Shown here: positions 2,871 through 59,541 of the stretch, one piece after another
Layout of the letters: every line of letters begins with the position of its first letter
Position numbering within the stretch: the stretch's first letter is position 1
Source of the DNA: Octopus vulgaris
Taxonomy: Eukaryota
NCBI GenBank assembly: GCA_951406725.2
Contig: OX597816.1
Span: 178,312,001-178,376,000 of the forward strand
DNA length: 64,000 nt
Reading direction: 5' to 3'
Program-made: the position numbers and the translations under genes
The notes under the pieces: model-generated
Databases searched by the model: none
Told to the model about the DNA's origin: nothing
What the model saw: only the letters and a program-made list of their open reading frames with translations

Positions 2871-3191
2871 AAATTACAAAGTGACTAAAGGACTGAGTTT
2901 CATGCATTTTGAAACATAATTTCACAAAACACATTCCACTTCCAACTCCTTCATTGTTAAATGTAACAAATTGCCAAGTGCACAAAAAAAAAATGTTCAT
3001 TATGATCTGTGTGGATCAATGATTAACTAAGAGGGAATGATGTGCTATTATAATTAAACTACAAGTCCAGATCCCCTGTACACAGCACTGCAGTCACAAG
3101 CGTGCTGGGTCAGCTAGCTGGTATGCTCTTTCAAGAGTTTCGTCTTCTTTTTTATTTGATAAACCTCATAGAATTTTAATAGTGATTCTAT

Positions 3192-3560: not shown

Positions 3561-3589
3561 TTGGTATGTAAGTGCCAAAGGGCACTTAC

Positions 3590-3654
3590 CATGGATTTGA
3601 TTCAGTTGCTTGAAAATACTTAGAAACACTTCATAATAGAATTACCTGAACAAT
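3590..3654 (-). CDS. CCDC60: Candidate CCDC60 exon 10 with an in-frame stop (YCSGNSIMKCF*)
   Basis: ttttag acceptor 75 nt after the exon 9 donor and a strong G|gtaagt donor at 3589, but TAA in the expected phase. Confidence 0.4.
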
Positions 3655-3729
3655 CTAAAATATTTAAAGAATAAAACATTTCAACACCAAAAATAAAGAA
3701 GCATCAAATGAAAATTACAAATGACTTAC

Positions 3730-3940
3730 ATGATACCGAGCTATTATCTTCATTTAACATTTCAAGACAATCTTCAGTAAGACTAGATTCCGTTCGATAA
3801 GATGGACTAGCAACTTCTTGAGATTGATGAATTGGTGTTGTACTTACACTTAACCCTGTAGTATATGAACTCCGCCGACTACTTGAGCGACGTGTCATGT
3901 AGCCATATTGCTTCCGGCCAGATGCCAATTTATAACAGGC
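3730..3940 (-). CDS. CCDC60: CCDC60 coding exon 9 (ACYKLASGRKQYGYMTRRSSSRRSS...DNSSVS)
   Basis: tttatag acceptor, gtaagt donor, 211 nt, phase 0-1. Ser/Arg-rich like the CCDC60 RKPSRRGS region. Confidence 0.8.
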
Positions 3941-4277
3941 CTATAAAATAATTTACATTAAAGGTGTTATTCTTCAAGCTCAATGGTAAAGTTTTAAAGA
4001 ATTTAAATTGGTGTTATGAAAGGAATTATACTCATCAGAACATTAAGTTTATAGTTTATGACTAAAAATTTAAATGCAAGACTCTTTCTACTCATACTCA
4101 GACAATGTTTTCTATTACTCCACACTATAAACTATTCAAGGTAAACACTGTGTCGGTCTCACTGGTATTTGAGGGTCTGCAGAAACTATATGTACAGCTC
4201 TTTCCTCAAGAACAAGTCAATGAAAGAAAATCAAAAATCAAAAAAACCCAGATTTGATGATAACTCATTACATAGAC

Positions 4278-8556: not shown

Positions 8557-8765
8557 CTGAAAAAAAAAACAATAATAAAATGATATATGTTGTTTCACAC
8601 ATATTTACTTACAAAATCCAAAAGCATTGAAGTCAGGACCAATTGTAATGAGGGCAATATACTTGAGAAGAAACTTTGCAGGGAATTTGAATTAAATTGC
8701 CATAAAAAAAACCCATTGAATTAAAAGTATTAAACATACTGAATAAGGATTTTAGACAAATAAAT

Positions 8766-8938
8766 AGGCACCGGAGTGGCTGTGTGGTAAGTAGCTTGCT
8801 AACCAACCACATGGTTCTGGGTTCAGTCCCACTGCGTGGCATCTTGGGCAAGTGTCTTCCACTATAGAACTCGGGCCGACCAATGCCTTGTGAGTGGATT
8901 TGGTAGACGGAAACTGAAAGAAGCCTGTCGTATATATG

Positions 8939-8969
<31 letters not shown>

Positions 8970-9180
8970 TTGTGTGTCTGTGTTTGTCCCCCTAGCATTG
9001 CTTGACAACCGATGCTGGTGTGTTTACATCCCCGTCACTTAGCGGTTCGGCAAAAGAGACCGATAGAATAAGTACTGGGCTTACAAAGAATAAGTCCCGG
9101 GGTCGATTTGCTCGACTAAAGGCGGTGCTCCAGCATGGCCGCAGTCAAATGACTGAAACAAGTAAAAGAGTAAAAGAGTA
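8766..9180 (+). mobile_element. SINE family A
   Basis: Near-identical to other copies in the window. Confidence 0.9.
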
Positions 9181-9301
9181 ACTACATGCATTATACACTT
9201 GTTCTTCATCTCAGCTTTGAAGCTGAAGTGAAGAACATGCATATAGTGCAAGAGGTTAACTGGCAAAAAAAATAGGACCATCCACAAATATAACATTTTC
9301 A

Positions 9302-9595
9302 TATCCGAGCGTGGCCGTCGGCCAGCCTCGTCTGGCACCTGTGTCGGTGGCACATAAAAAACACCATCCGAGCGTGGCCGTCTGCCAGCCTCGTCTGGCA
9401 CCTGTGTTGGTGGCACATAAAATCACCCACTACACTCTCGGAGTGGTTGGCGTTAGGAAGGGCATCCAGCTGTAGAAACACTGCCAGATCTGACTGGCCT
9501 GGTGCAGCCTTCGGGCTTGCCAGACCCCAGTTGAACCGTCCAACCCATGCTAGCATGGAAAGCGGACGTTAAACGATGATGATGATGATGATGAT
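9302..9595 (+). mobile_element. RTE 3'-UTR-only insertion
   Basis: Same terminal motif AACCCATGCTAGCATGGAAAGCGGACGTTAAACGATGATG. Confidence 0.85.
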
Positions 9596-10483
9596 TTTTA
9601 ATTAGAAAAAATGAGAATATTTTTAGAAATAAATTACATTGGAATAACCAAAAACAGTAGTCATATTAATCAAAGACAGTCAATAACATTAATTAGGCAC
9701 AAAATTCAAATTGAAAATTGTTATCAAAACATCCATTCTAAGCCTATATTTCTCCCTCTTTGTATTTAAATCTATCTCTATAGACAGTAATTCGTAGAGT
9801 TGCTAAAGTGTAGGACAAAATGCCAGACAGTATTTGTTCTGGTTGTGTGTGCTATAAATTCAAATCCCAAACAAGATCAACTTGTCTTTCATCATTTCAG
9901 GGTGTTCAAAAAAGTGGATTAATGACATTTTTAGAATGTTAGGCGAGGTGCTTTGCAGTATTTGTTCAGCTCTTTTTATTCTGAATTCTTGGGTCATAGA
10001 CTTAATCCATTGCTCAGTTTTGCACTACCACCTGGTTCTTGGGTGCATTTAGCAGAGTTCACTCAGTTGCAAGCATTTCCAGTTCATGGATAACTACCTT
10101 CCCACCCTCTTTAGCCTCAGAGACTAACAAAAATGGGATTAAAGGCACAACTTTTTCTTCCCTGACTAAACAGTAGAAAGAAAAAAATTAGGTTACCTAA
10201 ACAGTAGCATTTAGAACTAAATGTTTGTAAATTTAAATGAAATATAGTGTAACAGATTGTTCTTACTGGAGAAATCAGCCTTAGAGCTGGATGCTCTTCC
10301 TGTTGCTAAACACTCAGCTATGAAGCAAGAAGGGTTATGCACTTTCGTCATGTTTGGAAATTGCAATTAACTGAAAATGCTGATGTAGTAAGTCAGTCCC
10401 TTACTCCTTAACATGATTACATAAATTCATGCTATTGGCTCACTTGAAGTTTTTTCTTTAGTTCATTTTATTATTAACATTTA

Positions 10484-10858
10484 CTCTTTACTCTTTTACT
10501 TGTTTCAGTCATTTGACTGCGGCCATGCTGGAGCACCGCCTTTAGTCGAGTAAATTGACCCCGGGACTTATTCTTTGTAAGCCCAGTACTTATTCTATTG
10601 GTCTCTTTTGCCGAACCGCTAAGTGATGGGGACGTAAACACATCAGCATCGGTTGTCAAGCAATGCTAGGGACACACACACACACACATATATACGACAG
10701 GTTTCTTTCAGTTTCCGTCTACCAAATCCACTCACAAGGCATTGGTCGGCCCAGGGCTATAGCAGAAGACACTTGCCCAAGATGCCAAGCAGTGGGACTG
10801 AACCCAGAACCATGTGGTTGGTTAGCAAGCTACTTACCACACAGCCACTCCTGCGCCT
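10484..10858 (-). mobile_element. SINE family A
   Basis: Reverse-complement copy. Confidence 0.9.
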
Positions 10859-11321
10859 ATGTTTGTTAGCCTAGAAAGGCATTTCACATCATCTCACACT
10901 TAAATGCCTTTTATATTTTTATTTTTGTTTCTTCAGTCAGATAAAGATGGAACAAATTGTGTTCAAAACCAAATAAGATTTGGATTCATTTGTTGTTGAT
11001 GTTGCTTAGAATCAGGTCAGTTGATCGAGCAACTGTATATAATCAAATGCATTCTTTCAATGACCAATTCATTTCTTTTGTATATCAAGGATTACATAGT
11101 TGAGTGTATCCTTCATTATTTTTTTTCTCTGTTTATTGAGATAATTTGTACTTTTACATTACAATGATCTTCTTTCAACAGTTATCTCCTTGAGAAAAAA
11201 AGCAAAAAAAAAAATAAATAAATAAATCCAATAAACAAGTTATGATTAAAAGTTGTCAGTTTATTGATTACATGACAGATAAAGAACAGACAAAGTAATT
11301 AAAAATGAAATTGTTTCTTAC

Positions 11322-19538: not shown

Positions 19539-19699
19539 AGGCGCAGGAGTGGCTGTGTGGTAAGTAGCTTGTCTACCAACCGCATGGTTCCGGGTTCAGT
19601 CCCACTGCGTGGCACCTTGGGTAAGTGTCTTCTACTATGGCCTCGGGCCGACCAAAGCCTTGTGAGTGGATTTGGTAGACGGAAACTGAAAGAAGCCCG

Positions 19700-19736
<37 letters not shown>

Positions 19737-19960
19737 TGTGTGTGTTTGTGTGTCTGTGTTTGTCCCCTAGCATTGCTTAACAACCGATGCTGGTGTGTTT
19801 ATGTCACCGTCACTTAGCGGTTTGGCAAAAGAGACCGATAGAATAAGTACTGGGCTTACAAAAGAATAAGTCCCGGGGTCAAGTTGATCGATTAAAGGCG
19901 GTGCTCCAGCATGGCCGCAGTCAAATGACTGAAACAAGTAAAATAGTAAAATAGTAAAGA
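19539..19960 (+). mobile_element. SINE family A
   Basis: Full-length copy. Confidence 0.9.
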
Positions 19961-20232
19961 GAGTATTGTAATTTAGAATATTCTGTGGTGTGATGGACAG
20001 ATTGATGAAATGTCAGCTTTATAGTCCATCCCTGATAAATAAGTCATACAGTGCAGCATTATTTGACAAGTAAGAAAGCGAGTTAAAAAACGAACATATG
20101 AAAGAAAACAACGTAGTGCTAGATTAATTGTAAACTGTGTAGGTAGCTTTTTGAAAGTAGATATTGGATTATCTCAGAACAGAATAAACGAATGACTGAC
20201 ACTTTAACTATTTGTAAGATCAAATAAATACA

Positions 20233-20870
20233 ATCATCATCATCATCATTGTTTAACGTCCGTTTTCCGCGCTAACATGGGTTGGACGGTTCGACCGGGG
20301 TCTTGGAAGCCAGGGGCTGCACCAGGCTCCAGTCTGATCTGGCAGTGTTTCTACAGCTGGATGCCCTTCCTAACACCAACCACTCCGCGAGTGTAGTGGG
20401 TGCTTTTTACGTGCCACCTGCACAGGTGCCAGGGGGGGTCCGGCATTGGCCACGATCGGTTGGAGCTTTTAACGTGCCACCGGCACGGAAGCCAGCCAAG
20501 GCGGCGCTGGCAACGGCCACGTTCGGATGGTGCTTTTTATGTGCCACCAGCACAGGAGCCAGTCGGGGCGGTGCTGGCATCGGCCACGTTTGGATGGTGC
20601 TTTTTATGTGCCACTGGCACAGAAGCCAGTCAAGTCGGCGCTGGCTACGGCCACGTTCGGATAGTGCTTTTTATGTGCCACCGGCACAGGTATCACAACT
20701 ACTATTTCCATTTGATATTTATTTCGATGTTCATGTTCTTGTACTTGACTCAACAGGTCTCCTCAAGCACAGTGGGACGTTCTGGGATCCAGGGTACTTT
20801 GAATGGGCAGGGGCTATGCGGAACTGGTGCAGGAAGCAGCCTGGGTCTTTGCAGTCACAGCATACAGCAA
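20233..20870 (-). mobile_element. RTE 3'-UTR insertion with five hairpin repeat units
   Basis: (CAT)n tail at 20233; repeated GGTGCTTTTTAYGTGCCACYRGCAC. Confidence 0.85.
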
Positions 20871-21152
20871 AAAAAAAATATTAAAAAATAACAAAATATT
20901 TCATAGAAAAAACTGTGATAGAAAAAGAAACTGTACACTGTATTGTCTGGCCAAACTGTTGGAACATCAGCCCAACATTTGAAAGATCAACAGTTAACAT
21001 CCCACTTCTAGTGATAGTTAACCAGTATCTTTGAAACACAATATAGCATCAGTAATGATATGTGTAGAGAACTTTTAATAATCTGACAATAAATGGCTGT
21101 TAATAACCTAATGGAATTGTTAATAACCTAGCTATAAATGGCCCAAACTGCT

Positions 21153-21353
21153 TACTCTCTTTTACTTGTTTCAGTCATTTGACTGCGGCCATGCAGGAGC
21201 ACCGCCTTTAGTCGAGTAAATCGACCCCAGGACTTATTCTTTGTAAGCCCAGTACTTATTCTATCGGTCTCTTTTGCCGAACCGCTAAGTAACGGGGACG
21301 TAAACACACCAGCATCGGTTGTCAAGCAAAGCTAGGGGGACAAACACAGACAC

Positions 21354-21384
<31 letters not shown>

Positions 21385-21551
21385 CATATATACGACAGGC
21401 TTCTTTCAGTTTCCGTCTACCAAATCCACTCACAAGGCATTGGTCGGCCCGGGGCTATAGCAGAAGACACTTGCCCAAGATGCCACGCAGTGGGACTGAA
21501 CCCGGAACCATGTGGTTGGTTAGCAAGCTACTTACCACACAGCCACTCCTG
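21153..21551 (-). mobile_element. SINE family A
   Basis: Reverse-complement copy. Confidence 0.9.
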
Positions 21552-22784
21552 CTTGTTGTAAATAACTAACATGGTAAGATATACAGTCAAGAAGGCTACA
21601 TGCATTGAAGGCTACATGTATTGAAGGCTACATGCATTGAAGAAATACTTCAACAAAATCCAATTCTTCTTGACTTATAAAAGAGCAAATGTTTTTATTT
21701 TAAACTTTCAATCTTTCTGATTTTGAAATTTGGTTTGCAAGATTCTATTCTGTATCTTGGGAGGATCATTACACTAATAATAAACACATGCATTGGTTCT
21801 TTTTCACTTCTTTATTATTTGTTAATTTGTTTACTATTTAACTAACTAATTGATTGTTTCATTAATCATTCAGTAAATCAATCAATGAGTTATGTTTGTC
21901 AATGCCCTTTCATTGACATTTGTGACCTCTTAAATGACCTGCACTCTCTTCACCAGGTCAATTTCAAGTCTGTCTCTTTCAGTCTTTTCAAATATAAAGC
22001 CCTATAATTTTAATGGCATCAAGTATCCCTTTACTATATAAAGTAGTAGTTTAACCCTGGACATTTATAGGCCTTCTATAAGGCACAAGTGCTAACCTGC
22101 TACAGAATCAAATACTAAATGTAAATTTGAAATAGTTTAACTGCTACAAACATTCTCATCTGCATCTACAAAGGATATTCAACAGACTAGCAAACTTTTA
22201 CTCACCCATTAGTCCACAAACCAACTAGGTAGCCTCTATGTCACCATTTCACCTACTAGAAACATCAACTAAATCTCCCTCAAACCACAACCTATCATCT
22301 TAATAAAAGACACATTTGGGAATATATTATGGGATACATATTCCTGAAAAAAAGACAGAATCATCATCTCTTGAATGCCTTTGAGTATATATCCACTTAA
22401 ATAGAGCCAACTTGAGGGCTAAATCATAATCATCACCACCACTAAGCTTACCAATGCGTTGTACAAACCCTTTGTCTCTTCTACCACTACTAAAATGGTT
22501 CCTGTTCCCCTCAACAAGAAACATCTTACAACTACTATTCGAATTTTAATGTACCTGCCTCTTATAATTTCTGCTGTGTCTCACCTAACTGAACCATATG
22601 TTAAATAATTTTCCCAATCCCTTAATCTTCTGATGCCATTTTTAAAATTTCCTTATAGTCATCATCCTGCAGAAGAAGCTAACCATTAGCAGCATTAACC
22701 TTACCCATCTAGAGAAAACCTTCAAAGGCCATAGGCACTGCTATCTTCTTTGGACTGAATAATAAAAAATAATAATGCTTCCTA

Positions 22785-25661: not shown

Positions 25662-28600
25662 TTAAACAGCTCTTCTTCTTCCATTTGCCTTCAAATGTAC
25701 AGGGGATTCTTGCCCCTATGATGGAGGTTAGTACAGTCAATCAGCTGGCTTCTTCAGCTGATAAGATACTGGAATACACTGAGATAGAGTTGCTGATGAC
25801 AGAATTGCTGCTGTTTCTTCTTCTCTTGTTACAGTAGCAGCTACTACTTAAGAGCCTAATTCTGCAACTTTACAGGCCATCCTGGATTTAACCAAAGAAG
25901 TGAAGAGATTATGTGCTACTCAAAATTCTTATCAACGTTGACAAAGATCAATCGGTTGTTTGTCGTCCCCTAGGTGACATTCTCCTGCCTTTTCATCAAC
26001 CTTAAGTTGGTATCACCAATATTTTGTTGAAGTTACTTGTAGATGCATAAAACCTGGTGTTTATATGTGTGTCAGGGAAACTCCACTGTGGGATACTGAG
26101 CACAACAGCTGCTCCCAGTGCACATAACCATAACTGTGCGTTTTTTGGAGAGGACCTCTCATCACAAACTTTTCCTTGTGGATTCAGGTGCTGCCTGCAG
26201 TATTTGGCTGGTAAAATTCATTAAGGATAAACCTTCTCTTTCTGCAATTACCCTGCAAGCAGTGACCTATTCACCTATTCAAACATTTAATCAAATCTTG
26301 CTTTCTTTGGATCTGGATTTACAGCATGATTTTAAATGGGTTTTCATCATAGCTGACCTTACCCAATTTTAGGTGCGGTTTTTCTCCACCATTACTCACT
26401 TTTAGTGGATGTTTGTAAGCAGCATCCTTTGGATAGCTCTACGAAGCTTTTTATTCCAGTTGTCGAGTTTCTTTTGGTGAGTACTTTATACAATCTTTCA
26501 CACCCTGGAGTTTTGGCCTCAGTAAAGCTCATAAAGGCTACATTCTTCTGGCCAATTTTATTCTTGGCAGGAATTCAAATACTCCATCAGTTAGCCAAAC
26601 ATTTTTTATCATAGCATCTGGAGACTTATATCAGTCACTTTTGGACTCTTTCCCAGAGCTCATCAACCTGAATTTTTTAGCAAGTAATCCTACTCACTCT
26701 ACAAAACATTTCATTTCTACAACTGGTGCTCCTGTGTTTTCACATCCTCATCATCTGCCTCTGGAAAAACTAAAGGCAGCAAAGGCTGAGTTTGAATGCC
26801 TCAACTTGGAATTATCCACCCTTCAACAAGCACATGGGCCTCATCCCTGTACATGGTCCCTAAGGGCTCTGGTGATTGGAGACCTACAGGAGATTTTAGA
26901 CATCTCAATTCTTTGAAGGTTCCCGCTAAATACCCTATCTGTAATCTCCAGGATTTTGCTTCCTCTCTCCATGGATGTACAGTGTTTTCTAAGCTTGATC
27001 TTGTTTGAGCTTATCACCAGATTCCTGTTAACCAAGTGGACATTCCCAAAACTGCAATAACAACTCTATTCAACTCTTTCAAATTCTTGTCTTTGCCATT
27101 TGGCCTTTGCCATTCTGCCAGCACATTTCAACAGTTCATTGAGAAAGGCATTCGTGGACTGGACTTCATCTATGCTACATCAATGATCTCTTAATTGCCA
27201 GTTCTTCTACTAAAGAACATATTCAACATTTAAAGCTGCTCTTCCAACGTCTTCAGAACTTTCAGGTACAGATTAAGCTTCTTACTTTTTCCCTGCTTTC
27301 CAAGCTGGAAACCAAGACAAACTCAACAACTGGATTTTATATTGCAGTTCACCAACAATATTCAATACATCTCCGGTGCTCAAAACACTGCTGCAGATGC
27401 TTTGTCCTATCTGCCAATCAATTCATTGGTATCCACTCTAAGGATAGACCTGAATGTTTTGTCCTCAGATCAACCTCCTCTGGACTTACTGGACACATTT
27501 TCTCCTGAATTTATAACATGCAAATTCAAGTCGCTGCCTCCACTAAATTCTGACAGGCAGATTTTGTGTGACGTCTCAAACATCTCGATGGATTTGCCTC
27601 ATCCTTTCGTTCCAGGAACCCATCATCAAGCTGTATTTGAAACTTTACACAATCTTTCACACTCTGGAGTTTTGGCCTCAGTAAAGCTTATAAAGGCTAG
27701 ATTCTTCTGGCCAAATATGAAACAAGACATTACTGCATAGACTCGATCTTGCCCCCCCCCCCCACCATTGCCAGAAGTCAAAGCCACACAAGCACATTCG
27801 TGCCCTTCTCAGAACTTTTAGTACTCCAGATGCATGTTTTCACTACATACATATCAATCTCATGGGACCCTGGTCTGTCAGTCAGGGATTTACATACATC
27901 TTGACTTGTACTGACTACTTCTTCTGATGGCCTGAAGTGATTCCATTAAGTGACATTATTGCTGAATCTGTAGTGCGAGCCCTGGTGTCAGGATGGATAT
28001 TGCGCTATGACGTTCCTACCACCATTACCATGGACAGGGTCAGCTATTTGAATCCCATCTCTTTGTGGAACTCTCCAAAGTCATTGGTGATTAACAAATT
28101 CATACAACCAGCTATCATCCAACATCTAACAGAATTGTAAAGCATTTCCTATGCCAGCTGAAAGCTGCATTTTATACTTACCCCGACACTCAGCACTAGA
28201 GCAACTACTTCCCCATAGTACTCCTCGGCATCCAGACTTTGGTTAAGAAAGACCTGGGATACTCCCCAGCTGAACTATTGTACAGTGCTCCTTAGTCAGG
28301 GGAGATGCTTGCCTCAGTCAACCTTGCCACTCAACATCCAGCACTTTATATTAACCACCTGCATGCGTATTTTCAAGAACTACCACCAATGAGTGCTCTA
28401 CATCAAACAGTAAAATCTGTGGTCCTCAGAGACATTGCCTCATGGACCTACATTTTTGTACAAAATAATGCAGTGAGAAACCCTCTCACCCCACCTTATT
28501 CAGGAGCTTATCGCGTGCTGGCATACTCTGATAAACATTTTACCATTGATTTTAATGGTACTAAAGACAGTTTTTGTAGATAGACTTAAAGGGGCTTATA

Positions 28601-37540: not shown

Positions 37541-39193
37541 CTCCTATTTATCATAGTCCTCCAGGCAATAACGGAGGAATTCAAGACAGGATGCCCCTGG
37601 GAGCTCCTCTATGCTGATGACCTTGCTCTAATTGCTGAGTCACTATAAGAACTAGAGGAGAAGTTTCAGGTATGGAAACAAGGATTAGAATCAAAGGGAC
37701 TTAGAGTCAACGTAGCTAAAACCAAAGTCCTAATAAGTAGGAAGGCAGGCAAACCACAAATCCCTTCAAGTAGATGGCCCTGCTCAATCTGTAGTAGAGG
37801 TGTAGGTAGAAACTCTATAAGATGCACCAAGTGTAAGCTATGGACACATAAGAGGTGCAGTAATATCAAAGGAAGGCTAACTGGGAAGATAGTTTTTGTC
37901 TGTGGCAGATGCTCGGGAGCGATAAACACTGAAAATGCGCAGAGAACAACTTCCGCCACATTCCTGGGAGAAAAACTAGAGGTAGTCGATAGCTTCCTTT
38001 ACCTAGGTGACCAAGTCAGTAGCAGGGTAGAGTGCTCTGAAAGTGTAGCTGCTAGAATAAGAATAGCTTGGGCAAAGTTCAGAGAGCTCTTACCCCTGTT
38101 GGTGACAAAGGGCCTCTCGCTCAGAGTAAAAGGTAAACTGTATGACACATGTGTACGAACAGCCATGCTACATGGCAGTGAAACATGGGCTGTGACTGCT
38201 GAGGACATGCGTAAGCTCACAAGGAATGAAGCCAGTATGCTCCGATGAATGTGTAATGTCAGTGTGCATACTTGACAAAGTGTAAGTACCTTGAGAGAAA
38301 TGTTGGACCTAAGAAGCATCAGATGTGATGTGCAAGAGAGACGACTGTGCTGGTATGGTCATGTGGTGAGAATGGATGAGGATAGGTGTGTGAAAAAGTA
38401 CCACACCCTAGCGGTTGAGGGAACCTGTGGAAGAGGAAGACCTGAGATGAAGTGGTGAAACACAACCTTCGAACTTTAGGCCTCACCAAGGAAATGACTA
38501 GTGACCAAGACCTTTGGAAATATGCTGTGCTTGAGAAGACCCAACAAGCCAAATGAGACCATAACCTCGTGGCTTGTGCCAGGGGCGTAACCAGCCCACT
38601 TGTGCATACTTTTTCTTTCTTTGGACACTAAACTCTGCTTGCGAAGACCTGTTGAGGCAAGTGAAATCGAAATCAAAATCAAAGTGAAATTCAATGACGG
38701 GCACGAGCACCATACGAGCGTGATCGTTGACAGACAGCTAACCAGTGGCACATAAAAGGCACCATTCGAGTGTGATCGTTGCCAGCTTCGCCTTACTAGT
38801 ACTTGTGCCCCGTGCTAGTAGGGTACTAAGAGCACCGTCCGAGCGTGATCGTCGCCAGAGCAGCTAACTGACTTCCATGCCGGTGGCATGTAGGAGGCAC
38901 CATTCAAGCAGGATCGTTACCAGCAGCGCTTTACTGGCACCTGTGCCATTGGCATGTGTAAAAAAAATTCAAGCAAGGTCGTTGCCAGTACCGTCAGACT
39001 GGCCCCCGTGCCGGCGGCACGTAAAAGCACCCACTACACTCTCGGAGTGGTTGGCATCCAGCTGTAGAAACTCTGCCAGATCAAGACTGGAGCCTGGTGC
39101 AGCCATCTGGTTCGCCAGTCCTCAATCAAATCGTCCAACCCATGCTAGCATGGAAAGCGGACATTAAACGACGATGAAGATGACGATGATGAT
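37541..39193 (+). mobile_element. 5'-truncated RTE-clade LINE (RT C-terminal half, 3' UTR, (GAT)n tail)
   Basis: PWELLYADDL, PHD-like C4HC3 segment, ARIRIAWAKFREL, LRWYGHV-like motif; 3' UTR ends CCCATGCTAGCATGGAAAGCGGACATTAAACGACGATG. Confidence 0.9.
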
Positions 39194-42871: not shown

Positions 42872-43215
42872 CTAGGCTGCCCCCTTGTTATCGAGTATGG
42901 CCATTGCACGAAGCTTAACTGTTACTGGTGCTGTGATCGAATGTGACTTTTTAGCCCAGCTAAAGATCTACAATGTCTTGTACAGATTTGGCAACTAAAA
43001 CCTTTACCGGACAATAGCCGGCTGGAGTTGTAACTGGGCTTCATGTACCTTTGCATGTCGTTTGAGTCCTCCTGCCGAATCACACTCTCTCTTCCACATG
43101 CCCGACAGATATGATTAGTATGGTGTGTTACACCACCACCAGTGGCCAGGTTGTCACTCATCTGTCTCGCTTTATGACTACGAAGATGACTCTTCGGTCC
43201 AGCTTTACTGAGGCA
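42872..43215 (-). mobile_element. 3' end of a LINE with C-terminal C2H2 fingers (BovB/RTE-like)
   Basis: FSCQICTRHCRSLAGLKSHIRSQHQ* plus two frameshifted upstream C2H2-like motifs (CRACGRE..., LSKAGPKSHLRSH). Confidence 0.6.
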
Positions 43216-43927
43216 GTATATATAGACACATATACTGTATATTTATTTAAAAATTAAGTGAAAACAAACAAAACTAACGAAATTATAGAGATTACAACGT
43301 ACCATTAATAAAAGGCGAGAACCTGGTCTCATTAGTAATATCAAAAAGATAAAGTTATTTCGAAAAATGTATTTGAATAACGATGTTTTCAAACCATGTA
43401 AACACAATTTCTTCAATTACTTCATTTCACTACATATTATTCTAAAAATAGTTCTAGAGAATTGTATTAAAAGATGTGGATCTCACCTTCCGATGTTAAT
43501 CAATATGCATTCGGTCCTCAGAATTTCATTTTGGTTCCTTTTTATTCAGCGAAGACTACAGCAAGGTACTCACACCATAAACCTTAATTGCCAATATCAT
43601 TCAAACGTGACTATTTTCATCGCTTGTCTGTGAGAGAAATGTTTTTCCTTTCTTTATCTGCAAAGTAGACGTTTTAACTGATGTGTATATTAAAGGGTGG
43701 AAAAATAGAAGGAAGGATACAGGACAATTATAACTTCTTTACTCGTGAATTTACTTGCAAAAGTCGAATAGGAAGAGTTTCAGCAATCTAAAGTTGTTGT
43801 TTTTTTTTTCTGTCACTACAAGTTTCTACATGTTAAAAGTCATGTCAAAGGAAAGAAGAAATTAAGAGTAACATTGCTCGACAATGTGAAAAAATTAAAT
43901 CTTCCGAAGATATTAAATTAGATTTAA

Positions 43928-46804: not shown

Positions 46805-47495
46805 GGATCTTTTCGGTTTGAATGGCAGTTTGTAACATAATTTCTAGGAAACTAAAAAATTTTAAACTTCGTATACTGGTAGAATTTGTTTATAAATCAT
46901 CATTTTCTCTTGGCTTTATTGAGAAAATTCTATAGTTTGTAACAAATTTCGTCTAAAATTTCTTGCATTTCAGCAATTTTAACCAATCGCTGACCGTCTA
47001 TTGAGGTGAAAGCATTCTGTGCCGCATCAATTTGTCCCTCGTTTAAGAAACAGATTGGGTTTATTTACATTTCTGAAGAAAAAAAGATACCCTTCCTTCA
47101 CCCATAACCCTAACCCTAAAATAGATTGAAATGCAATAGATCGATACTAGGATCATAATTGTGGGTGACATTTTCATTTGACACCGCTAGGAAAAACTTA
47201 GGGTTAGAGGTGGGGGAAGGGTATCTTTTTTCATCACAAATGTAAATAAACCCAATCTGTTTCTTAAACGAGGGACATATTGATGCGGCACAGAATGCTT
47301 TCACGGTCAGCGATTGGTTAAAATTGCTGAAATGCAAGAAATTTTAGACGAAATTTGTTACAAACTATAGAATTTTCTCAATAAAGCCCAGAGAAAATGA
47401 TGTTTTATAAACACATTCTACCAGTATACGAAGTTTAAAATTATTTAGTTACCTAGAAATTATGTTACAAACTGCCGTTCAAACCGAAAGGATCC
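46805..47495. mobile_element. Near-palindromic MITE related to the 819-2034 element
   Basis: GGATCTTTTCGGTTTG...CAAACCGAAAGGATCC, perfect 8-bp TSD taaaaatc, shared TTAAACTTCGTATACTGGTAGAAT motif, short ccctaa/ttaggg motifs near the centre. Confidence 0.9.
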
Positions 47496-48635
47496 TAAAA
47501 ATCTTATAGAAAACAATAAAATAACGAAAAATTGGTGTTTGTTATTAGTTCGAAGTGTCGTCTGCTTGTTGTTTTGCATGCACCCACGCACGCGCAAATT
47601 ATACAGATGAGCATATATTTCGAAAAATTGTGGTGGGCGGCCGATTTAAAATTAAAAATTATAAAATACATTTTTTCAGAATCACAATCTAAATGTATAA
47701 GGCATACTTACACAAGTGTGTGTGTGTGTGTGTGTACGTATATATATGTATGTATATATGCATGCTTTATTTATTATTTTGTTATTATATGATGGAACGC
47801 CACGCATCCACTTCCCAGTAAGTTTTATCTTAATAATAATAATGCGCACTCTTAACCTTTCTGTCCCCCTCCCTCTCTCATTCTTCCTTCTTTATGGTTT
47901 TCTCTACCACCCCTTCCTTTTCTTCTAACCTTACTGTCCCTCTCTCTCTCATTCTTCATTCTTTCTGGTTTTCTCTACAACCCTTCCCTTTTTTCTCTCC
48001 CTTTCTCCTCCTCCTCTCTCCCGTCGCTGACACGTGACCAGAGGGCCACTGCCTTTCTGACTACTGCCTCCAAGTGTAGACGGCTTCTTGTCCCTCTCTC
48101 AAGCCTTTCTCAAAGCGGTCAAAATAATTTTTCCTTTCGTCCAGGCTTAACAACCCTTAATGTTTGTGTTACTGTTATTCTCCTTGTTCTATCTTTTACT
48201 CTTTTTATTTGTATTGTCTTTGCTATCCTGTTTTTGTTACCACTTTTACTCCTCTGCAAAAAAATCTCAAATTTTATTTAATTTGCTTTGCGGGAAGGAC
48301 TGTTTCAATGAAGTCGTGTCTCGCCTTTACCTTCGAAACGCGGAGTAGACGAAGCAGAGGCGGCCGAAGAAGGGGAATGTTCCTTGTGTTGTATGTCTTG
48401 TACTCTGTTTTTTCGTTGTTTAAAAAAATGTCCGTTTCCTTGGTTTTGTTTTTGTTTTCATTCCTCATTGTGTTCGACGTTTTTTTGGTGTCCTGTACCC
48501 ATATATGCATGTATATATACATATAGATGTAGGTACGTACATATATGTATGTATATATGCATATGTTTTATTTATTATTTTGTTAGTATATATATATATA
48601 GCCAAGAAAAAAGTAACAACAACAATGGATCAGTA

Positions 48636-48725
48636 ATTCGGTACAATGGTTTCATACTGGGAACATTTTTATTTGAAGCTGCAAATATTACAGCAAATAT
48701 AATGTCAAGTATTCATCAGCCAAAT
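48636..48725 (-). ncRNA. Type-I hammerhead ribozyme (inverted twin)
   Basis: Reverse-complement copy with intact core; stem III reads CCATTG. Confidence 0.75.
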
Positions 48726-48921
48726 CACATATATGTTTTCCAACCATCCTAGAAAGTGTAAATATCCTTATGAAGCTTTTTAAAAAACTTTTTTAAAAAC
48801 TGTGCATTGTTGGAAGACATATAAAGTCTGCTTATTACCTTACTTCTAAGTCATGGAACTCACTCTGAATACTTCATAAGGATATTTACACTTTCTAGGA
48901 TGGTTGGAAAACATATATGTG

Positions 48922-49011
48922 ATTTGGCTGATGAATACTTGACATTATATTTGCTGTAATATTTGCAGCTTCAAATAAAAATGTTCTCAGTATGAAACAA
49001 TTGTACCGAAT
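48922..49011 (+). ncRNA. Type-I hammerhead ribozyme
   Basis: ATTTGG-CTGATGA-ATACT...AGTAT-GAAA-CAATTG-TA-CCGAAT: 6-bp stem I, intact core, stem II, palindromic stem III, GUA cleavage triplet. Confidence 0.85.
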
Positions 49012-49163
49012 TACTGATCCATTGTTGTTGCTACTTTTTTCTTGGCTATAATCACCCCATATATTTTTATGGTTAATACCATAAAGAATTCTGGTGCATC
49101 TAAGTTAAGTACCATATTCACTTGAATTCATTTGAATTCATTTGAATCTTAATTGCTTTGCTG

Positions 49164-49208
<45 letters not shown>

Positions 49209-49305
49209 CGGGAAGCTTTATGAAAATAAACAAAAGACGAAGGCAGGTGGAATACAAACAAACAATTGTATTAGTATGGCGCTCAGGAATATAAATAAAA
49301 CAAGT

Positions 49306-49341
49306 CTTTTACGTTTCGAGCCTACGCTCTTCAACAGAAAG
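49306..49341 (-). ncRNA. Minimal hammerhead with a core substitution (CUGUUGA)
   Basis: CTTT-CTGTTGA-A-GAGC-GTAG-GCTC-GAAA-CG-TA-AAAG; same family as 54881. Confidence 0.55.
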
Positions 49342-49419
49342 ATACACAGAAAAGAAACACAGAAAGAAAAAGGAGAGAAAAAAATGCGTGCAGAGGCTAG
49401 CGAATCAACATGGCGATCA

Positions 49420-50698: not shown

Positions 50699-50862
50699 GG
50701 CGCAGGAGTGGCTGTGTGGTAAGTAGCTTGCTAACCAACCACATGGTTCCGGGTTCAGTCCCACTGCGTGGCATCTTGGGCAAGTGTCTTCTACTATAGC
50801 CCCGGGCCGACCAATGCCTTGTGAGTGGATTTGGTTGACGGAAACTGAAAGAAGCCTGTCGG

Positions 50863-50896
<34 letters not shown>

Positions 50897-51110
50897 TTGT
50901 GTATCTGTGTTTTGTCCCCCTAGCATTGTTGACAACCGATGCTGGTGTGTTTACGTCCCCGTCACTTAGCGGTTCGGCAAAAGAGACCGATAGAATAAGT
51001 ACTGGGCTTACAAAGAATAAGTCCCGGGGTCGAGTTGCTCGACTGGGGGCGGTGCTCCAGCATGGCCGCAGTCAAATGACTGAAACAAGTAAAAGAGTAA
51101 GAGTAAGAGT
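50699..51110 (+). mobile_element. SINE family A
   Basis: Full-length copy. Confidence 0.9.
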
Positions 51111-51256
51111 ATACAAAAAGAGCCGGCAACAGAAGGATCCATTCTAATATAGGGGAGAAAGTAGTGTATATTATTACTAGCAGTATCGCCCGGCGTTGCT
51201 CGGGTTTGTAAGGGAAATAACTATAAAGCATTTTTAGAGAGTTATAGCCAAAAAAT

Positions 51257-51665
51257 ACTCTTTTACTCTTTTACTTGTTTCAGTCATTTGACTGCAGCCA
51301 TGCTGGAGCACCGCCTTTAGTCGAGCAAATCGACCCCAGGACTTGTTCTTTGTAAGCCCAGTACTTATTCTATCGGTCTCTTTTACGAACCGCTAAGCGA
51401 CGGGAACGTAAACACACCAGCATCGGTTGTCAAGCAATGCTAGGGGGACAAACACAGACACACAAACACACACACACACATACATATATATATATACATA
51501 TATACGACAGGCTTCTTTCAGTTTCTGTCTATCAAATCCACTCACAAGGCATTGGTCGGCCCGGGGCTATAGCAGAAGACACTTGCCCAAGATGCCATGC
51601 AGTGGGACTGAACCCGGAACCATGTGGTTGGTAAGCAAGCTACTTACCACACAGCCACTCCCGCG
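51257..51665 (-). mobile_element. SINE family A, tail-to-tail with the previous copy
   Basis: Reverse-complement copy directly after a Helitron 3'-end fragment (51177-51256). Confidence 0.9.
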
Positions 51666-51763: not shown

Positions 51764-53169
51764 CCTCGGTTTTGTTTCTTGATAACTAAAATTTTTAATG
51801 AAATTTTTTTACAACTACATTTCAGATGGTGTGGATTATGATTACATTGGAATTTAATGTAATGTTTTTCAATGGTGCTCGTGCACACATCCATATTGAC
51901 ACGTATTACATATTTTTTTTTAAATTTCAAGTTTTATATATATATATATTGTAGATATATATGTAATATGTGTCAATATGAATATGTGCGCACTCACCAT
52001 TCCTACTCCCCCTTCCCACTAAATTTCGATATAATCCTAATTGACACAGTCTGAAAGGTATTTATAGAAATTTTCATCAAAAGATATCCATTTTTCTGAA
52101 AGTTATATGGAAAGAAAGTTGGGTAGTGGGGGCGCACATTGTAGATATACCACATATAACTCCAAACGAATAAAAGAAAAAATCAAAACCCCAAATTTTA
52201 GAGTGTTGTGGTACTTGATATTTTAAAAAGTCTTTATTTTTTGTAGTCCCTTCACCCCGGAATATAATCTCTGTTCTTGAAAATGTAGGGATCAGAATAA
52301 ATATTTGAGAAAATAAAATACTAGGTGAGTCGCAAACACTTCCACCAGCTTTGTCGCGTGACTTTTAGAGGCCCCTGCAACTTTTCGTATCGAGGCCCCA
52401 TCCCGTCAATCAAAATTCATAATCTACGTCCCTTTTATTCATAACTATATTTGACTTTATTCTATCTGAAGTTCAATGTTTCACGTTATCCTAAAGAACA
52501 TCTTTAAAACTACAAGTCAAATTTATTTAGGTCTATTACAAACTTCAATAATTAAAACTTGCTGATATGAATAAAAGAACACTTTTATAATCCAGGCAAC
52601 TCTCAAAGACGAACACTGTGCACTTCACGCTTCACGAAATCATCGATCAGTTCAGAATAATCAAGCTGAGAGCTAAGTTCGTGTTCAATACATACCATAG
52701 ACAATCCACAAAGTCTGGTACACGTTTGTGGTACATTGTAATATTTTTACAAGAACTTTTGCAGGTACAATTTTATTTTTTGAAAATTTCAGTTAACATA
52801 GATAGTTTAATTCTTGTTCAACATCTTAACAGAAGTAAATAGATAACTCATCTATATACTTTGATCTTAACATGGGGCTCCTCAGCCTTGGAGGCCCTCT
52901 GCGACAACAGGGGTTTTCATGAGGCTGATGTTAGGAAGAAGGTTCGGCGCTTTAAGCCTTCACCCTCTACACTTGTTTGTGTGCGGAAAATAGGGGAACA
53001 GCCATTCCCTTGTGACCTCCCCATCATTTCTATCACTGATCTGGATGATAAAATAAAAACAACTATTTCAAAGATATTTTATTTCCCTATTAGATGAAAA
53101 ATCGAGTAGATTGTTAATACGTTTACAATTTGTCGAATTATTAAGCTTTGACAGGGTCTCCTGATCCCT

Positions 53170-54780
53170 TATCTGGTGTGTGATGCGGAAACTGGAGATT
53201 GACGAATGGTTAATAAGGGCTGTACAGGCCCTTTACAGAGAGGCCATAAGTAAGGTTAGGATTGGTAATGAATATAGTGAAGAATTCCAGGTAGAAGTAG
53301 GGGTCCACCAAGGTTCAACCCTCAGTCCCCTTTTATTCATCATAGTCCTCCAGGCAATAGCTGAGGAATTGAAGATGAGTTTCCCCTGGGAGCTCCTCTA
53401 TGCTGATGACCTGGCATTCATAGCAGAATCACTACCGGAACTAGAAAAGAAATTTCGTGTGTGGAAGCTAGGTTTAGAATCAAAAGGTCTTAGAGTCAAT
53501 GTAGCTATGACCAAAGTTCTAGTAAGTAAAAAGACGAACTCACCACACACACCCTTAGGTAGATGACCCTGCGCGATCTGTAGAAAAAGTGTAGGTAGAA
53601 ACTGCATAAGATGTACCCAGTGTAAGCTATGGACACATAAGAGGTGCAGCAACATCAAAGGAAAATTAACTGAGAAGATAGCTTTCGTGTGCGACAGATG
53701 CACAGAGGCAATAAACACCACTGATACTCAGAAAACAGATTTCATCACACTCCAGGGAAAGAAACTAGAAGTAGTTGATAGTTTCTGCAACCTAGGTGAC
53801 CAAGTTAGTAGTGGGGTTGGATGCTCAGAGAGTGTTACCACTAGAATAAGAATAGCCTGGGCAAAGTTTAGGAAGCTTCTTCCCCTACTGGGGACAAAAG
53901 ATCTCTCGCTCAGAGTGAAAGGTAGATTGTACGGCGCATGTGTGCGAACTGCCATGCTTCACAGCAGTGAAACATGGGCCGTGACTGCGGAGGACATGCG
54001 TAGTCTTGAAAGAAATGAAGCTAGCATGATCCGCTGGATGTGTAATGTCAGTGTCCATGCACGACAGAGTGTAAGTGCCCTGAGAAAAATGCTGGACATA
54101 AGAAGCATTGGATGCGGCGTGCAGGAAAGATGTTTGCGTTGGTATGGCCATGTACTATGGATGGATGAGGAGAGCTGTGTGAAGAAGTGCCACTCCCAAA
54201 CTGTTGAGTCTGGGGGTAGAGGTAGACCCAGGAAGACATGGGATGAGGTGGTCAAGCATGACCTTCAAAAGTTGGGCCTCACCTCTGGAGATATGCTGTG
54301 ACTGCAAAGACCCGACAAATGAAGTGAGTTCATGCCTCACAGAACAGCCGGCTGTGCTAACCTTGGATTGTAGGGTGACCTGGTGTGCTTGAGGAGACCT
54401 ATTGAGTCAAGTACATCAACATCAAAATAAAAATCAATGGAAATTGTAGTTGTGATACCCGTGCCGGTAGCAAGTAAAAAGCACCATCCGAACATGACTG
54501 ATGCCAGCGCTGACCTGACTGGTGTCCATGCTGGTGACAGACAAAAAGCATCAACCGATCGTGGCCATTTGCCAGCCTCCTCTGGCTCCTGTGTTGGTGG
54601 AACATAAAATGCACCCACTACACTCACAGAGTGGTTGGCATTAGGAAGGGCATCCAGCTGTAGAAACACTGCCAGATCAGACTGGGCCTGGTGCAGCCTT
54701 CTGGCTTCCCAGACCCTGGTCGAACCATCCAACCCATGCTAGCATGGAAAACGGACGTTAAACAATGATGATGATGATGA
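53170..54780 (+). mobile_element. 5'-truncated RTE-clade LINE, same family
   Basis: ORFs 53180-53566 (VGVHQGSTLSPLLF...WELLYADDL) and 53687-54301 (RIRIAWAKF...LRWYGHV...GRGRPRKTW); the same 3' UTR and (GAT)n tail. Confidence 0.92.
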
Positions 54781-54880
54781 TATATATATATATATATGAT
54801 GATGATGATATATAATCCTATGATTGACTGCTAGTCACTAAAGCTTTTTTTATTCTCTCTCTGCTTATTTTCTCATGTTC

Positions 54881-54916
54881 CTTTCTGATGAAGAGCGTAG
54901 GCTTGAAACGTAAAAG
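54881..54916 (+). ncRNA. Minimal Penelope-type hammerhead ribozyme
   Basis: CTTT-CTGATGA-A-GAGC-GTAG-GCTT-GAAA-CG-TA-AAAG. Confidence 0.75.
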
Positions 54917-55856
54917 ACTTTCTCACCTTCCTGAGCATTAAACTATTACACCTGTTTGTTGTTTACACACCTGTCTTCGTCTTTTGATATTTTTGTAAAT
55001 TCCAACTATATATAATCCTATACATATGTAGAGAGAGAGAAAGAGATACGTTTACAGAGGTGAAGTAACAGTGACTTTGAAGTTTGGTTTTGCTAGCCTT
55101 CAAAGGAGACACTTCTCTTGTTTTGAGTAATCATCCAGTTTAAAATAAAATTGATTTTATTATAACTTGACATAAACAGATACTTTAATGTGTGTGTGTG
55201 TGTGTGTGTATGTTACATAAAATACTTTGTCCCCTGATTATATGTAAATTTTTTATTAATTGATTGAAAAAGATCTTTAGTTGTGAACCGACGCTATTTT
55301 TTTAATGCTGTATGCATGTTAAAATGATTTTGAATGCCAACTTAACAGTTATAAACTTTGTAAATATGTTCCACAGTTAGACAACATAGACTGTTCTCAT
55401 CTGACAACCAAGCTAATAGACTTTACCAATAGTGACAATCATAATCTACATTTATATGTAAGCATGTATTTACACACACACACACGTGCTGACAGTTATT
55501 TCAGGTTTTTTTCCTCTTGCTCTTTTAATAATCCCCTGACAGGTTCTGACATGTCTGAATTAAGAAAAGCTCAAACAAGGGATTATATTTGTTTCCTTCT
55601 AAGTCAATCTATTTCTGAGTGTTCACTTATTTCCCTCTTCTCCCTAAGAATAAGGAATTCTACTTCAATACTTCAAAACACCATGGATTAAGGATTTTGT
55701 GCCTTATCAGGCCTTTAGTTCTTTTGGTATATTATAGGTAAAATATGAACTAGTAGGACAAATGTTCTAGTGAGGAGTTAAAAATTTGAGCCAGAAGAGT
55801 CGGTAACACAGTTTCAATCTCTGTTTAAAGCTATTTTTCATTTCACTTATTTATTT

Positions 55857-56560
55857 ACTAGCTTAAAAGCAGCATTCCATGCAGACTCTTGAGCTAGCTC
55901 CTGCAGGGGGCTAATTGAGCCTAAGGCCCAAAACTAAAGAGAGCAAAAATCATAAAGCATTTATTGGTTCCCAACCATCTCAGATTTAGATCACAGAGTG
56001 TCATATTTGGAGAATTTTGTATCATCATGACATTTGGAGATCACTGTAAAGCAGCAGGATAAATAATATTCTTGGTTTTACCATTTGATGTGAGTATGAA
56101 AATATTGTTGCCATTTCCCACTCTGGAATAACCAAATTAGAGCTGACCATGGTAAAAGCACTGCTGCATGAGGTGAAGTCCAACAATCAGTCTTGTTCCA
56201 TTGCACAGCTTTGGAAGATCCGTTTTTCGCAAAAGCATGGTTGGAACTCCTTTCTTCAATGTCAGTTTGTGAAAAGTTATTTCAGGAGGATCCAAAGAGT
56301 TAAGACACTCAGTAGGATAATTCACAGCTTCATTGGGGTCCACAACACTATCAATTGAGAAATAATTTTTTTCGTCAGTATTGATTGATTGCATAAGTTT
56401 CCAGTTGATAACCTGAACAGTTTCATTCTTTGGTGCAAGTATGGATCTTTACAAAGCCAATCAGGATCTTGAAAATCATGTCCAATGTTTGGGAAAACCT
56501 TGGTAATCAACTCTTCCACAGTTTTGACCAAAGTGCCGCGGCCATTTGGAAAAGTGATGT
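55857..56560 (-). mobile_element. Helitron RepHel/PIF1 helicase remnant
   Basis: VFPNI...DWLCK, NYPTECLNSLDPP...LCNGTRL, CFYHGQL; CTAG near 55858. Confidence 0.8.
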
Positions 56561-57294: not shown

Positions 57295-57700
57295 TACTCT
57301 TTACTCTTTTACTCTTTTACTTGTTTCAGTCATTTGACTGCGGCCATGCTGGAGTACCGCCTTTAGTCAAGCAAATCGACCCCGGGACTTATTCTTTGTA
57401 AGCCCAGTACTTATTCTATCGGTCTCTTTTGTCGAACTGCTAAGTGACGGGAACGTAAACACACCAGCATCGGTTGTCAAGCAATGCTAGGGAGACAAAC
57501 ACAGTTACACAAACACACACACACATACATATATATATATACATATATATGACAGGCTTCTTTCAGTTTCCGTCTACCAAATCCACTCACAAGGCATTGG
57601 TTGGCCCGGGGCTACAGCAGAAGACACTTGCCCAAGATGCCACGCAGTGGGACTGGAACCATGTGGTTGGTTAGCAAGCTACTTACCACACAGTCACTCC
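57295..57700 (-). mobile_element. SINE family A
   Basis: Reverse-complement copy. Confidence 0.9.
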
Positions 57701-58284
57701 TATGTTACATTTTCAAATTCATGTTCAATTCTGCTGGAATGAATGAAGAATAAATATGCTAGTCGTATGTTTTTAATTGTGCTTTCACTCTGCATATGAG
57801 AATTTATTTTTCCTTATATTTTATTTTTTTTAATACCTTGATTTTACTGATTTTGTAAAATTCAGCACAGACTAAATTTCTGCTTTCTGAGTATTTTTAA
57901 AAGCTAATTTAATAATGTTACTTTCTTGACAATATATTTATATAGATACATACATATATATATATATATACATACATAGGTGTACATACATACATACATA
58001 CATACATACATACATACATACATACATACATACATACATACATACATACATGCATACATGCATACATGTGTGTGTATGGGGGGGTTATTTAGTAGTATAA
58101 TGAATTATATCCCTTTTCACTAAAAAAGGTCAACATGTTATTCAATAAATAGAAACTCATAAAGATAAAAAGCTGACTAAAATAAATACAGGGGCTTTAT
58201 GTTTGAAGGCCTTGTCCCAACATGGCCAAAGTTAAAAAATCTGTTAACATAAAACAATACCAACAATACGGTTTAATACAATAC

Positions 58285-58930
58285 ATGCTCAGCTGGATGG
58301 TGGTGTCAGTGTGCATGCACGACAGAATGTAAATGATTTAAGAGGAAAACTGGGTATAAAAGGCGTCAGATGTTGTGTGCAAGAGAGAAGACTGCGCTGG
58401 TTTGGTCATGTGATGCCGATGGATGAAGACGGCTGCTTAAGGAAGTGCCAATCTCTAACTGTGGAGGGAACCTGTGAAAGGGGTAGACCCAGGAAGAAGT
58501 GGTGAGAAAGGTTCTTCAGATGCTGGGCCACACTGAGGAAATGACCAGGGACTGGGATTGTGGCCATTTGCTGTACTTGAGAAGATGCATCAAGCTAAGA
58601 AAAGTCACAGTCATCCATACATAGAGGCATGGCTTTCCAGGTGTCAATGCCATGTAAAATGCATCGTCCCAGTGCTGCATAGATGCACCCATGCCAGTGC
58701 TGCATATATCCGTTCATGCCGGTGGAAAGTAAAAAGCACCCAGTACACATTGTAAAGTGGCTGGTGTTAGGAAGGGCACCCAGCTGTAGAAACCATTGCA
58801 AAAGAGATAACTGGAGTCTGGACAGCTCTCCAGCTGGCCAACTCCTGTCAAACCATCCAACCCATGCCAGCATGGAAAACAGATGTTAAATTAAGATGCT
58901 GCTGCTGATGATGGTGATGATCATGATGAT
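58285..58930 (+). mobile_element. Older RTE LINE 3' fragment
   Basis: ORF 58311-58505 (ERRLRWFGHV...GRPRKKW) followed by a diverged 3' UTR and GAT-rich tail. Confidence 0.8.
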
Positions 58931-59089
58931 ACACACACACACTTATACTATTTATATTATATATAAATATGCATCTACTTATTCACTCACATACAAATAG
59001 TTTCATGTTGAATAATTTGATAATCACAGCATAAGTAATGGACAAGTATTTTTTGATAATGGTTTTTTTTTATTAATATCTAATAATTA

Positions 59090-59260
59090 GGCGCAGGAGT
59101 GGCTGTGTGGTAAGTAGCTTGCTTACCAACCACATGGTTCCGGGTTCAGTCCCACTGCGTGGCATCTTGGGCAAGTGTCTTCTGCTATAGCCCCGGGCCG
59201 ACCAATGCCTTGTGAGTGGATTTGGTAGACGGAAACTGAAAGAAGCCTGTCGTATATATG

Positions 59261-59291
<31 letters not shown>

Positions 59292-59480
59292 GTCTGTGTT
59301 TGTCTCCCTAGCTTTGCTTGACAACCGATGCTGGTGTGTTTACGTCCCCGTCACTTAGCGGTTCGGCAAAAGAGACCAATAGAATAAGTACTGGGCTTAC
59401 AAAGACTAAGTCCCGGGGTCGATTTTCTCGACTAAAGGCGGTGCTCTAGCATGGCCGCAGTCAAATGACTAAAACAAGTA
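59090..59480 (+). mobile_element. SINE family A
   Basis: Full-length copy. Confidence 0.9.
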
Positions 59481-59541
59481 AAAAAAAAAAATTTTTTTTA
59501 AATTAATTGAAAAGATTAACTGGATATAAAAATATATAAAA

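Follow-up and report, generated by a model that had tools for sequence, protein, structure and literature searches.

The locus analysed here lies in a window of 64,000 nt (the whole stretch of DNA that was examined) and consists of two outward-facing hammerhead motifs, one on each strand, embedded in the arms of an inverted repeat. We consider it quite probable that it represents a 5′-truncated insertion of a Penelope-like element (PLE) with a layout that is already in print, and the head-to-head pair was likely left by a single, heavily 5′-truncated insertion in a TA microsatellite. The Penelope-like reading is supported by the 5′ truncation, the head-to-head inverted copy, the one-sided tail, the (TA)n target and the presence of a hammerhead near the 3′ end. 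In this respect the analysis agrees with the preliminary description of the DNA, which had proposed a non-coding, non-autonomous element of Penelope-like or retrozyme type.

The features of the locus are collected in Table 1. The two arms, each 179 nt long and separated by a gap of 96 nt, are 98% complementary and differ from each other at only three positions (48987/48660, 48999/48648 and 49031/48616), as expected from the 179-bp inverted repeat described earlier. That repeat had been placed between (TA)n tracts; both tracts are indeed present, but the right arm is not a terminus, as 118 nt of tail precede the TA sequence on that side. Because this segment lies outside the right arm, the insert is asymmetric. 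We also considered a MITE or foldback DNA element and rejected it, since the inverted repeats do not occupy both termini. The left arm terminates at what recurs elsewhere as the short 3′ end of the repeat family. No target-site duplication was discernible at the boundary between the left (TA)n tract and the arm, and no microhomology was seen at the inversion point. The tail contains a 10-nt unit in three near-copies (49118–49147).

Table 1 Features of the inverted-arm locus and its flanks
Feature	Positions	Strand	Remarks
Left (TA)n target tract	48587–48600	.	TATA overlaps arm end (microhomology)
Left arm, inverted copy of element 3′ end, more strongly 5′-truncated	48597–48775	−
Hammerhead motif, type I	48633–48728	−	C3 48719; predicted cut after 48642
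Near-palindrome, 18 nt, AT-rich	48773–48790	.	Spans inversion junction 48775/48776
Central spacer, 96 nt	48776–48871	+	Repeat-family sequence upstream of ribozyme
Right arm, direct copy of 3′ end	48872–49050	+
Hammerhead motif, type I	48919–49014	+	C3 48928; predicted cut after 49005
One-sided 3′ extension (tail), 118 nt	49051–49167	+	Ends at long 3′ end of family
Right (TA)n target tract	49168–49207	.	Common to adjacent minus-strand second-family hammerhead element

The central spacer is likely the 3′ untranslated region of the parent family. It holds no long open frame, and we rejected the idea that a PLE frame breaks off in it, as every plus frame contains stops and substituting the read-majority letters by hand opened none of them. 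Upstream of the ribozyme, a 14-nt motif occurs twice (48810–48823 and 48904–48917) at a spacing of 94 nt. The two copies differ in one letter, at 48816, where most contig depth restores identity to the other copy; the motif could serve as a binding site for a protein or as part of a promoter.

To describe the ribozymes, we used a structure descriptor, which recovered an intact type I core in both arms. In the plus copy, the core CUGAUGA is followed by a stem II region of 59 nt, by GAAA and then by GUA, with H17 at 49005; stem III is ACAAUUGU, a perfect palindrome at 48997–49004. In the minus copy, with H17 at 48642, stem III reads ACCAUUGU and its palindrome is broken by one change. Stem I is 9 bp long and the stem II region is interrupted. 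The hammerhead descriptor gave 0 matches in each of 30 block-shuffled windows, and the two-box core pattern did not appear in any of 100 shuffles. Folding reproduced stems I and II, with a fold energy that was by itself unremarkable (z −1.45 and −2.11). Thus, the earlier claim of a complete type I hammerhead in each arm, on opposite strands, is confirmed, with the core CUGANGA/GAAA/NUH and three helices in place. The palindromic stem III of the plus copy and the cut predicted after 49005 likewise agree with the descriptor. The stem I of 6 bp given earlier extends to 9 bp.

The 59-nt stem II region is the sole unusual trait of the locus. A search with the Rfam hammerhead models, which the preliminary description had proposed as a check, returned no match to either arm up to E 10. 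In the whole window, nothing exceeded the gathering score, and only hairpin-like miRNA and snoRNA noise appeared up to E 10. The Rfam hammerhead models are insensitive here, because the short motif of a second hammerhead family in the window was also missed (no Rfam match to its copy at 54885–54912).

We compared the locus with the traits of known PLEs. A hammerhead lies in the 3′ pseudo-LTR, where the distance from its cut to the two 3′ ends is 45 and 163 nt; 5′ truncation is accompanied by an adjacent head-to-head inverted, 5′-truncated copy; and the optional tail at one end, which creates the two 3′ ends, is present and exceeds the usual 30–40 nt. PLEs in general share the inverted 5′-truncated copy, the one-sided tail and the bias towards (TA)n (PMC8557442). 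The locus also combines (TA)n insertion with a canonical hammerhead, as Hydra-clade elements do, and it resembles that clade in the position of the hammerhead near the 3′ end and in the short palindromic stem III (PMC8557442, accessible text). The (TA)n bias is not Hydra-specific, being common to Naiad and Neptune. The closest likeness in layout that we note is Penelope-13_HM of the Hydra clade, for which the same source describes an inverted 5′-truncated copy in (TA)n and a ribozyme on either strand. At the protein level, the Hydra clade is marked by RWK and DKT motifs and a CxCX5C linker and lacks CCHH. Unlike these elements, the locus is without RT or endonuclease and has a stem II region of 59 nt as opposed to about 12–25 nt in the part of the source consulted. 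The ribozyme listed there for Hydra-1_Obim differs in sequence from that of the locus, as judged by eye.

Cut-to-end distances in the Hydra clade were obtained by hand arithmetic from a table in PMC8557442, taking each listed position as the base at which the 20-nt flank starts and omitting the antisense row as well as one 5′ row. They fall at 30–48 nt (10/24), 63–97 nt (4/24) and 114–153 nt (9/24), with one at 355 nt. At the locus, the longer distance of 163 nt becomes about 143 nt when a local 20-nt duplication is discounted. Judged by the cut distances, the (TA)n target and a stem III that is both short and palindromic, the Hydra clade is the likeliest assignment, with roughly an even chance. 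Naiad elements are characterized by the lack of a canonical hammerhead and by an N-terminal endonuclease; the motif here is complete, but its 59-nt spacer falls outside the core searches of PMC8557442, which, in the sections available, used spacers of 7–17 and 35–50 nt. The 3′ end of Naiad_Obim looks different by eye from the octopus family.

Other systems share aspects of the arrangement. Opposite-strand ribozyme pairs 100–700 bp apart were described in 2014 as probable truncated PLEs (PMC4209133, accessible text). The dual minimal hammerheads of Schistosoma mansoni in that paper also lie on opposite strands with a palindromic stem III, and they cleave weakly and require a dimer. The locus differs from them in having a stem III of 3 bp with a 2-nt loop, a stem I of 9 bp and a very long stem II. 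Poseidon PAc of Anolis has two RT start sites, which define an optional tail, and an AT-rich target (PMC11167929, accessible text); its tail, however, is 30–40 nt long and overlaps the start of the ORF, whereas the locus has no such frame. Non-LTR retrozymes resemble the locus in being non-coding DNA with type I hammerheads and kinship to PLE ends (PMC7229834 and 10.64898/2026.07.22.740005, as far as these are accessible). They are, in contrast, tandem same-strand repeats of 150–450 bp and yield circles, whereas the ribozymes of the locus lie on opposite strands and cannot release a monomer. The retrozyme label of the preliminary description was accordingly dropped: with one motif per strand, the defining tandem same-strand hammerheads are missing, and no direct copy was found within the window.

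We then addressed the repeat family to which the locus belongs, using public sequencing runs. Among the runs listed, 20 of 24 contain part of 48776–49165 (four coded organisms, 11 studies). Contigs from four of the 24 (X1, X3, X5 and X10; the last is RNA by guess only, and its data are contigs) were aligned to the 393 nt of 48776–49168. The alignments comprised 259, 436, 732 and 101 contigs, respectively, with 22, 31, 50 and 5 of them at least 99% alike; this low share indicates that the family is multi-copy and heterogeneous. The spacer is covered by family contig pieces at 48813–48934 and 48778–48929, and an X10 contig over the latter carries 39 additional letters upstream, which suggests that family sequence extends past the spacer in that direction. 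The summed depth in X5, which is not a copy number, climbed from 51 at 48776–48789 through about 3,000–4,000 in the spacer to about 37,000 where the ribozyme starts, and peaked at about 490,000 in the tail. A rise from 5′ to 3′ is expected of copies that are begun at the 3′ end and terminated early. In each of the four runs, the summed depth of the tail segment 49084–49125 was about 6–10 times that over the ribozyme, which could reflect tail-only insertions in very large number or else a motif that also occurs in another family.

The loose ends of the contigs (24 rows listed, with 160 further rows in existence) define two recurring 3′ ends, which match the end of the left arm and the end of the right tail. 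At the short 3′ end, loose ends behind 49029–49032 ran into (TA)n in at least 7 contigs of X1 and at least 14 of X5; behind 49032, those of X3 (at least 7) entered tail-like sequence and those of X10 (at least 7) a CA repeat. At the long 3′ end, loose ends behind 49127 first read a short A/T-rich end and then (TA)n in at least 12 contigs of X1 and at least 22 of X5, and at least 13 contigs of X3 had the same A/T-rich end with no clear TA run. The tail measures 118 nt at the locus versus about 95 nt in the family. Among the joints listed, none of the four runs provided the strand change of the inverted junction; the contigs could be too short to contain it, or the insertion could be absent from those samples.

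These data bear on an alternative in which the family is a dedicated non-coding, non-autonomous derivative of a PLE, SINE-like with a fixed short unit, that borrows RT and endonuclease from an autonomous PLE, the locus being one inverted insertion of it. Such a unit would fit the absence of a coding link among the window frames and the roughly tenfold step in depth near 48888–48930, which could mark its defined 5′ end. PLE-derived non-autonomous units and pLTR sequences able to act in cis have also been reported (accessible parts of 10.64898/2026.07.22.740005 and PMC3846280, respectively). However, cover keeps declining through the spacer, one contig extends 39 nt upstream past 48778, tandem same-strand ribozymes are absent, and truncated fragments are reported to be far commoner than full PLEs (PMC4209133, accessible text). 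We therefore read the locus as a truncated copy, on the grounds of the upstream continuation and of the lack, in four of four runs, of a contig joint reproducing the inverted junction. The dedicated non-autonomous element of the preliminary description thus found no confirmation, and we regard it as unlikely.

The family contigs also allowed us to examine variation in the ribozyme. Nine variants are listed for 48922–49011 (16 rows of the whole table lie beyond those listed), and none of the nine falls in the catalytic core. Four are in bulges (48940, 48972, 48986 and 48988), the one at 48980 is compatible with wobble pairing, and those at 48973 and 48981 disrupt pairs. Partner changes were found in the loose ends of other contigs, unphased, at 48926 with 49007 in stem I and at 48989 with 48939 in stem II. 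The sparing of the core and the apparent compensatory changes suggest that the fold may be under selection in the parent family, to the extent that unphased variants allow. Since no listed row falls at 48999, the palindromic stem III looks like the family state, with the minus copy mutated.

At six sites (48893, 48903, 48926, 48972, 48988 and 49024) both arms carry a minority letter, and 65–99% of the X1, X3 and X5 depth there reads another letter. Because these minority letters are common to both arms, a single donor or homogenisation is the likely explanation, as opposed to two independent insertions that met by chance. In the origin that we propose for the truncated PLE, the GIY-YIG endonuclease of the element would nick both strands of the (TA)n tract, and its RT would prime on each strand with transcripts of the same donor as templates. 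One copy would begin at the long 3′ end and give the right arm and the tail (about 390 nt), and the other would begin at the short internal start and give the 179-nt left arm. Both would end early, and their 5′ ends would be joined head-to-head. We infer dual-strand priming from the long and the short end because, in the accessible text of PMC11167929, a PLE protein cuts AT-rich DNA on both strands and extends both, with two internal RNA start sites for RT that define the tail. The self-priming model of PMC3846280 offers an alternative route to the same product, and junction palindromes are reported there in rotifer PLEs (accessible text). The tandem precursor RNA of the parent element would be cut by the ribozyme, likely acting as a dimer via the palindromic stem III. 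Dimer cleavage in the parent is probable because the self-duplex of the plus stem III is predicted at −6.4 kcal/mol versus +2.4 kcal/mol for its monomer hairpin; the minus stem III self-duplex is predicted at −0.9 kcal/mol.

The shared letters could also arise if a single truncated PLE end underwent a later inverted duplication, by local repair or template switching, or homogenisation by gene conversion, with no second priming. The two arms resemble each other far more closely than family members do, differing at 3 of 179 positions, compared with a family in which 22/259, 31/436 and 50/732 contigs are at least 99% alike, and a near-palindrome sits at the junction. Random repair, however, would not choose the recurrent, (TA)n-adjoining family 3′ end at which the left arm stops, and the layout is common across PLE clades (PMC8557442 and PMC3846280, accessible text), which leaves this explanation very unlikely. 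Some points also count against the truncated-PLE reading that we prefer, namely that no RT or GIY-YIG is linked, that the tail is longer than the usual 30–40 nt both here and in the family, that the depth step could be a true 5′ end as noted above, and that two of the nine listed variants break pairs in a ribozyme whose self-cleavage is a prediction.

Transcripts of the locus had been suggested to be self-cleaving and also to fold into long dsRNA. The dsRNA part is upheld by prediction; the two together are not, as they are predicted alternatives, an RNA with both arms pairing the ribozyme into the hairpin. In such an RNA the ribozyme fold costs about 118–120 kcal/mol over the hairpin, so that read-through RNA is predicted to be long dsRNA and not self-cleaving. 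For RNA starting in the spacer, the predicted cost is about 2–3 kcal/mol and the predicted probability of the open fold is 0.01–0.07. By these models the ribozyme would be mostly silent at the locus, and only spacer-start RNA could fold it. As the two ribozymes lie on opposite strands, there is neither an intramolecular dimer nor release of a circle. PLE ribozymes cleave weakly when alone. That of Poseidon PAc needed protein and was dispensable for insertion in vitro (PMC11167929, accessible text). We give hardly any credence to the head-to-head pair being a functional unit, MITE-like mobilised or host-kept, in which two-way transcription from the spacer yields two self-cleaving RNAs that pair via stem III: both cores are intact, spacer-start RNAs can escape the hairpin to the extent predicted, and rotifer pLTRs are reported with oppositely oriented promoter motifs (PMC3846280, accessible text), but no strand-change joint is among those listed in four of four runs (which short contigs may miss), the minus copy has no stem III palindrome, the right end has no terminal repeat, and the presence of four ribozyme motifs from two families within 64 kb suggests that such debris is common.

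No RT or GIY-YIG frame linked to the family was found within the 64-kb window. None of 192 open frames (at least 65 aa, low-complexity frames dropped) had a GIY-YIG Pfam match, and the Pfam scan of these frames detected RT, integrase, PHD, Pif1 and zinc-finger remnants, all away from the locus. Exact motif scans of metagenomes, prokaryote genomes and viral contigs gave 0 loci, as expected for animal DNA. There were also 0 exact matches in the accessible supplement of PMC13282606 and 0 for five short window motifs in that of PMC8557442, where line breaks or gaps may hide some; the separate TE library of O. vulgaris may nevertheless include the family. In the literature on hammerheads in octopus and cephalopods, we found no report of this family within a scope that excluded most subscription papers and Repbase.

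A single locus of this kind matters little, as its layout is already in print and PLEs make up about 7% of an octopus genome (6.83% in 190 families for O. vulgaris; PMC13282606, accessible text). A long-stem-II hammerhead that Rfam misses nevertheless suggests that cephalopod ribozyme counts are too low. Very short insertions of this type, whose head-to-head copies are almost identical but end at a short and a long 3′ end, respectively, are compact test cases for dual-strand priming by PLEs. That PLEs use two RT start sites to prime on both strands of the target is still unvalidated. A broader proposal would be that the locus stems from an uncatalogued, abundant octopus PLE family with a 59-nt stem II hammerhead missed by Rfam and published searches and a tail of about 100 nt, that this family spreads mainly in the form of a non-coding, non-autonomous unit, and that, where inserted head-to-head, it provides hairpin-gated ribozymes and long dsRNA substrates for RNA editing; taken as a whole, we find this improbable.

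The surrounding window contains further elements. A minimal hammerhead motif of a second family (49337–49310, minus strand; stem III ACGU, core with A6U) belongs to a 210-nt element at 49208–49419 between TA tracts, which lies tail-to-tail with the inverted-arm element in one TA tract; it too is likely the 3′ stub of a PLE. A second copy at about 54813–55009 (plus strand) has its motif at 54885–54912 with an intact core and adjoins (TA)n; 153 of 210 aligned columns are identical between the two copies. With four hammerhead motifs in 64 kb, retroelement debris of this kind is apparently common. At 48290–48350 there is a degenerate, pyrimidine-rich, hammerhead-like stretch with a GAAAC box after a short stem; its core is not intact and the descriptors do not recover it.

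Two further elements, at 46805–47495 and 819–2034, have long inverted arms (193 and 211 nt) with (CCCTAA)-like repeats inside, appear related by eye and carry no hammerhead; they probably form a MITE or foldback family. Opposed pairs of a 400-nt SINE-like repeat with 87–93% identity, at 50701–51665, 8764–10860, 19543–21552 and 57307–59491, are a potential source of further dsRNA in read-through transcripts. The window is octopus-like, since for a nearby RT remnant the named matches include Octopus bimaculoides and O. vulgaris, with 72–84% identity. Mobile-element remnants at 26437–27737, 37649–38245, 53165–54298, 56140–56448 and 42925–43242 include RT with an integrase zinc-binding domain (LTR), RT with a PHD finger (LINE), a piece of Pif1 helicase (Helitron-like) and a C2H2 zinc-finger frame.
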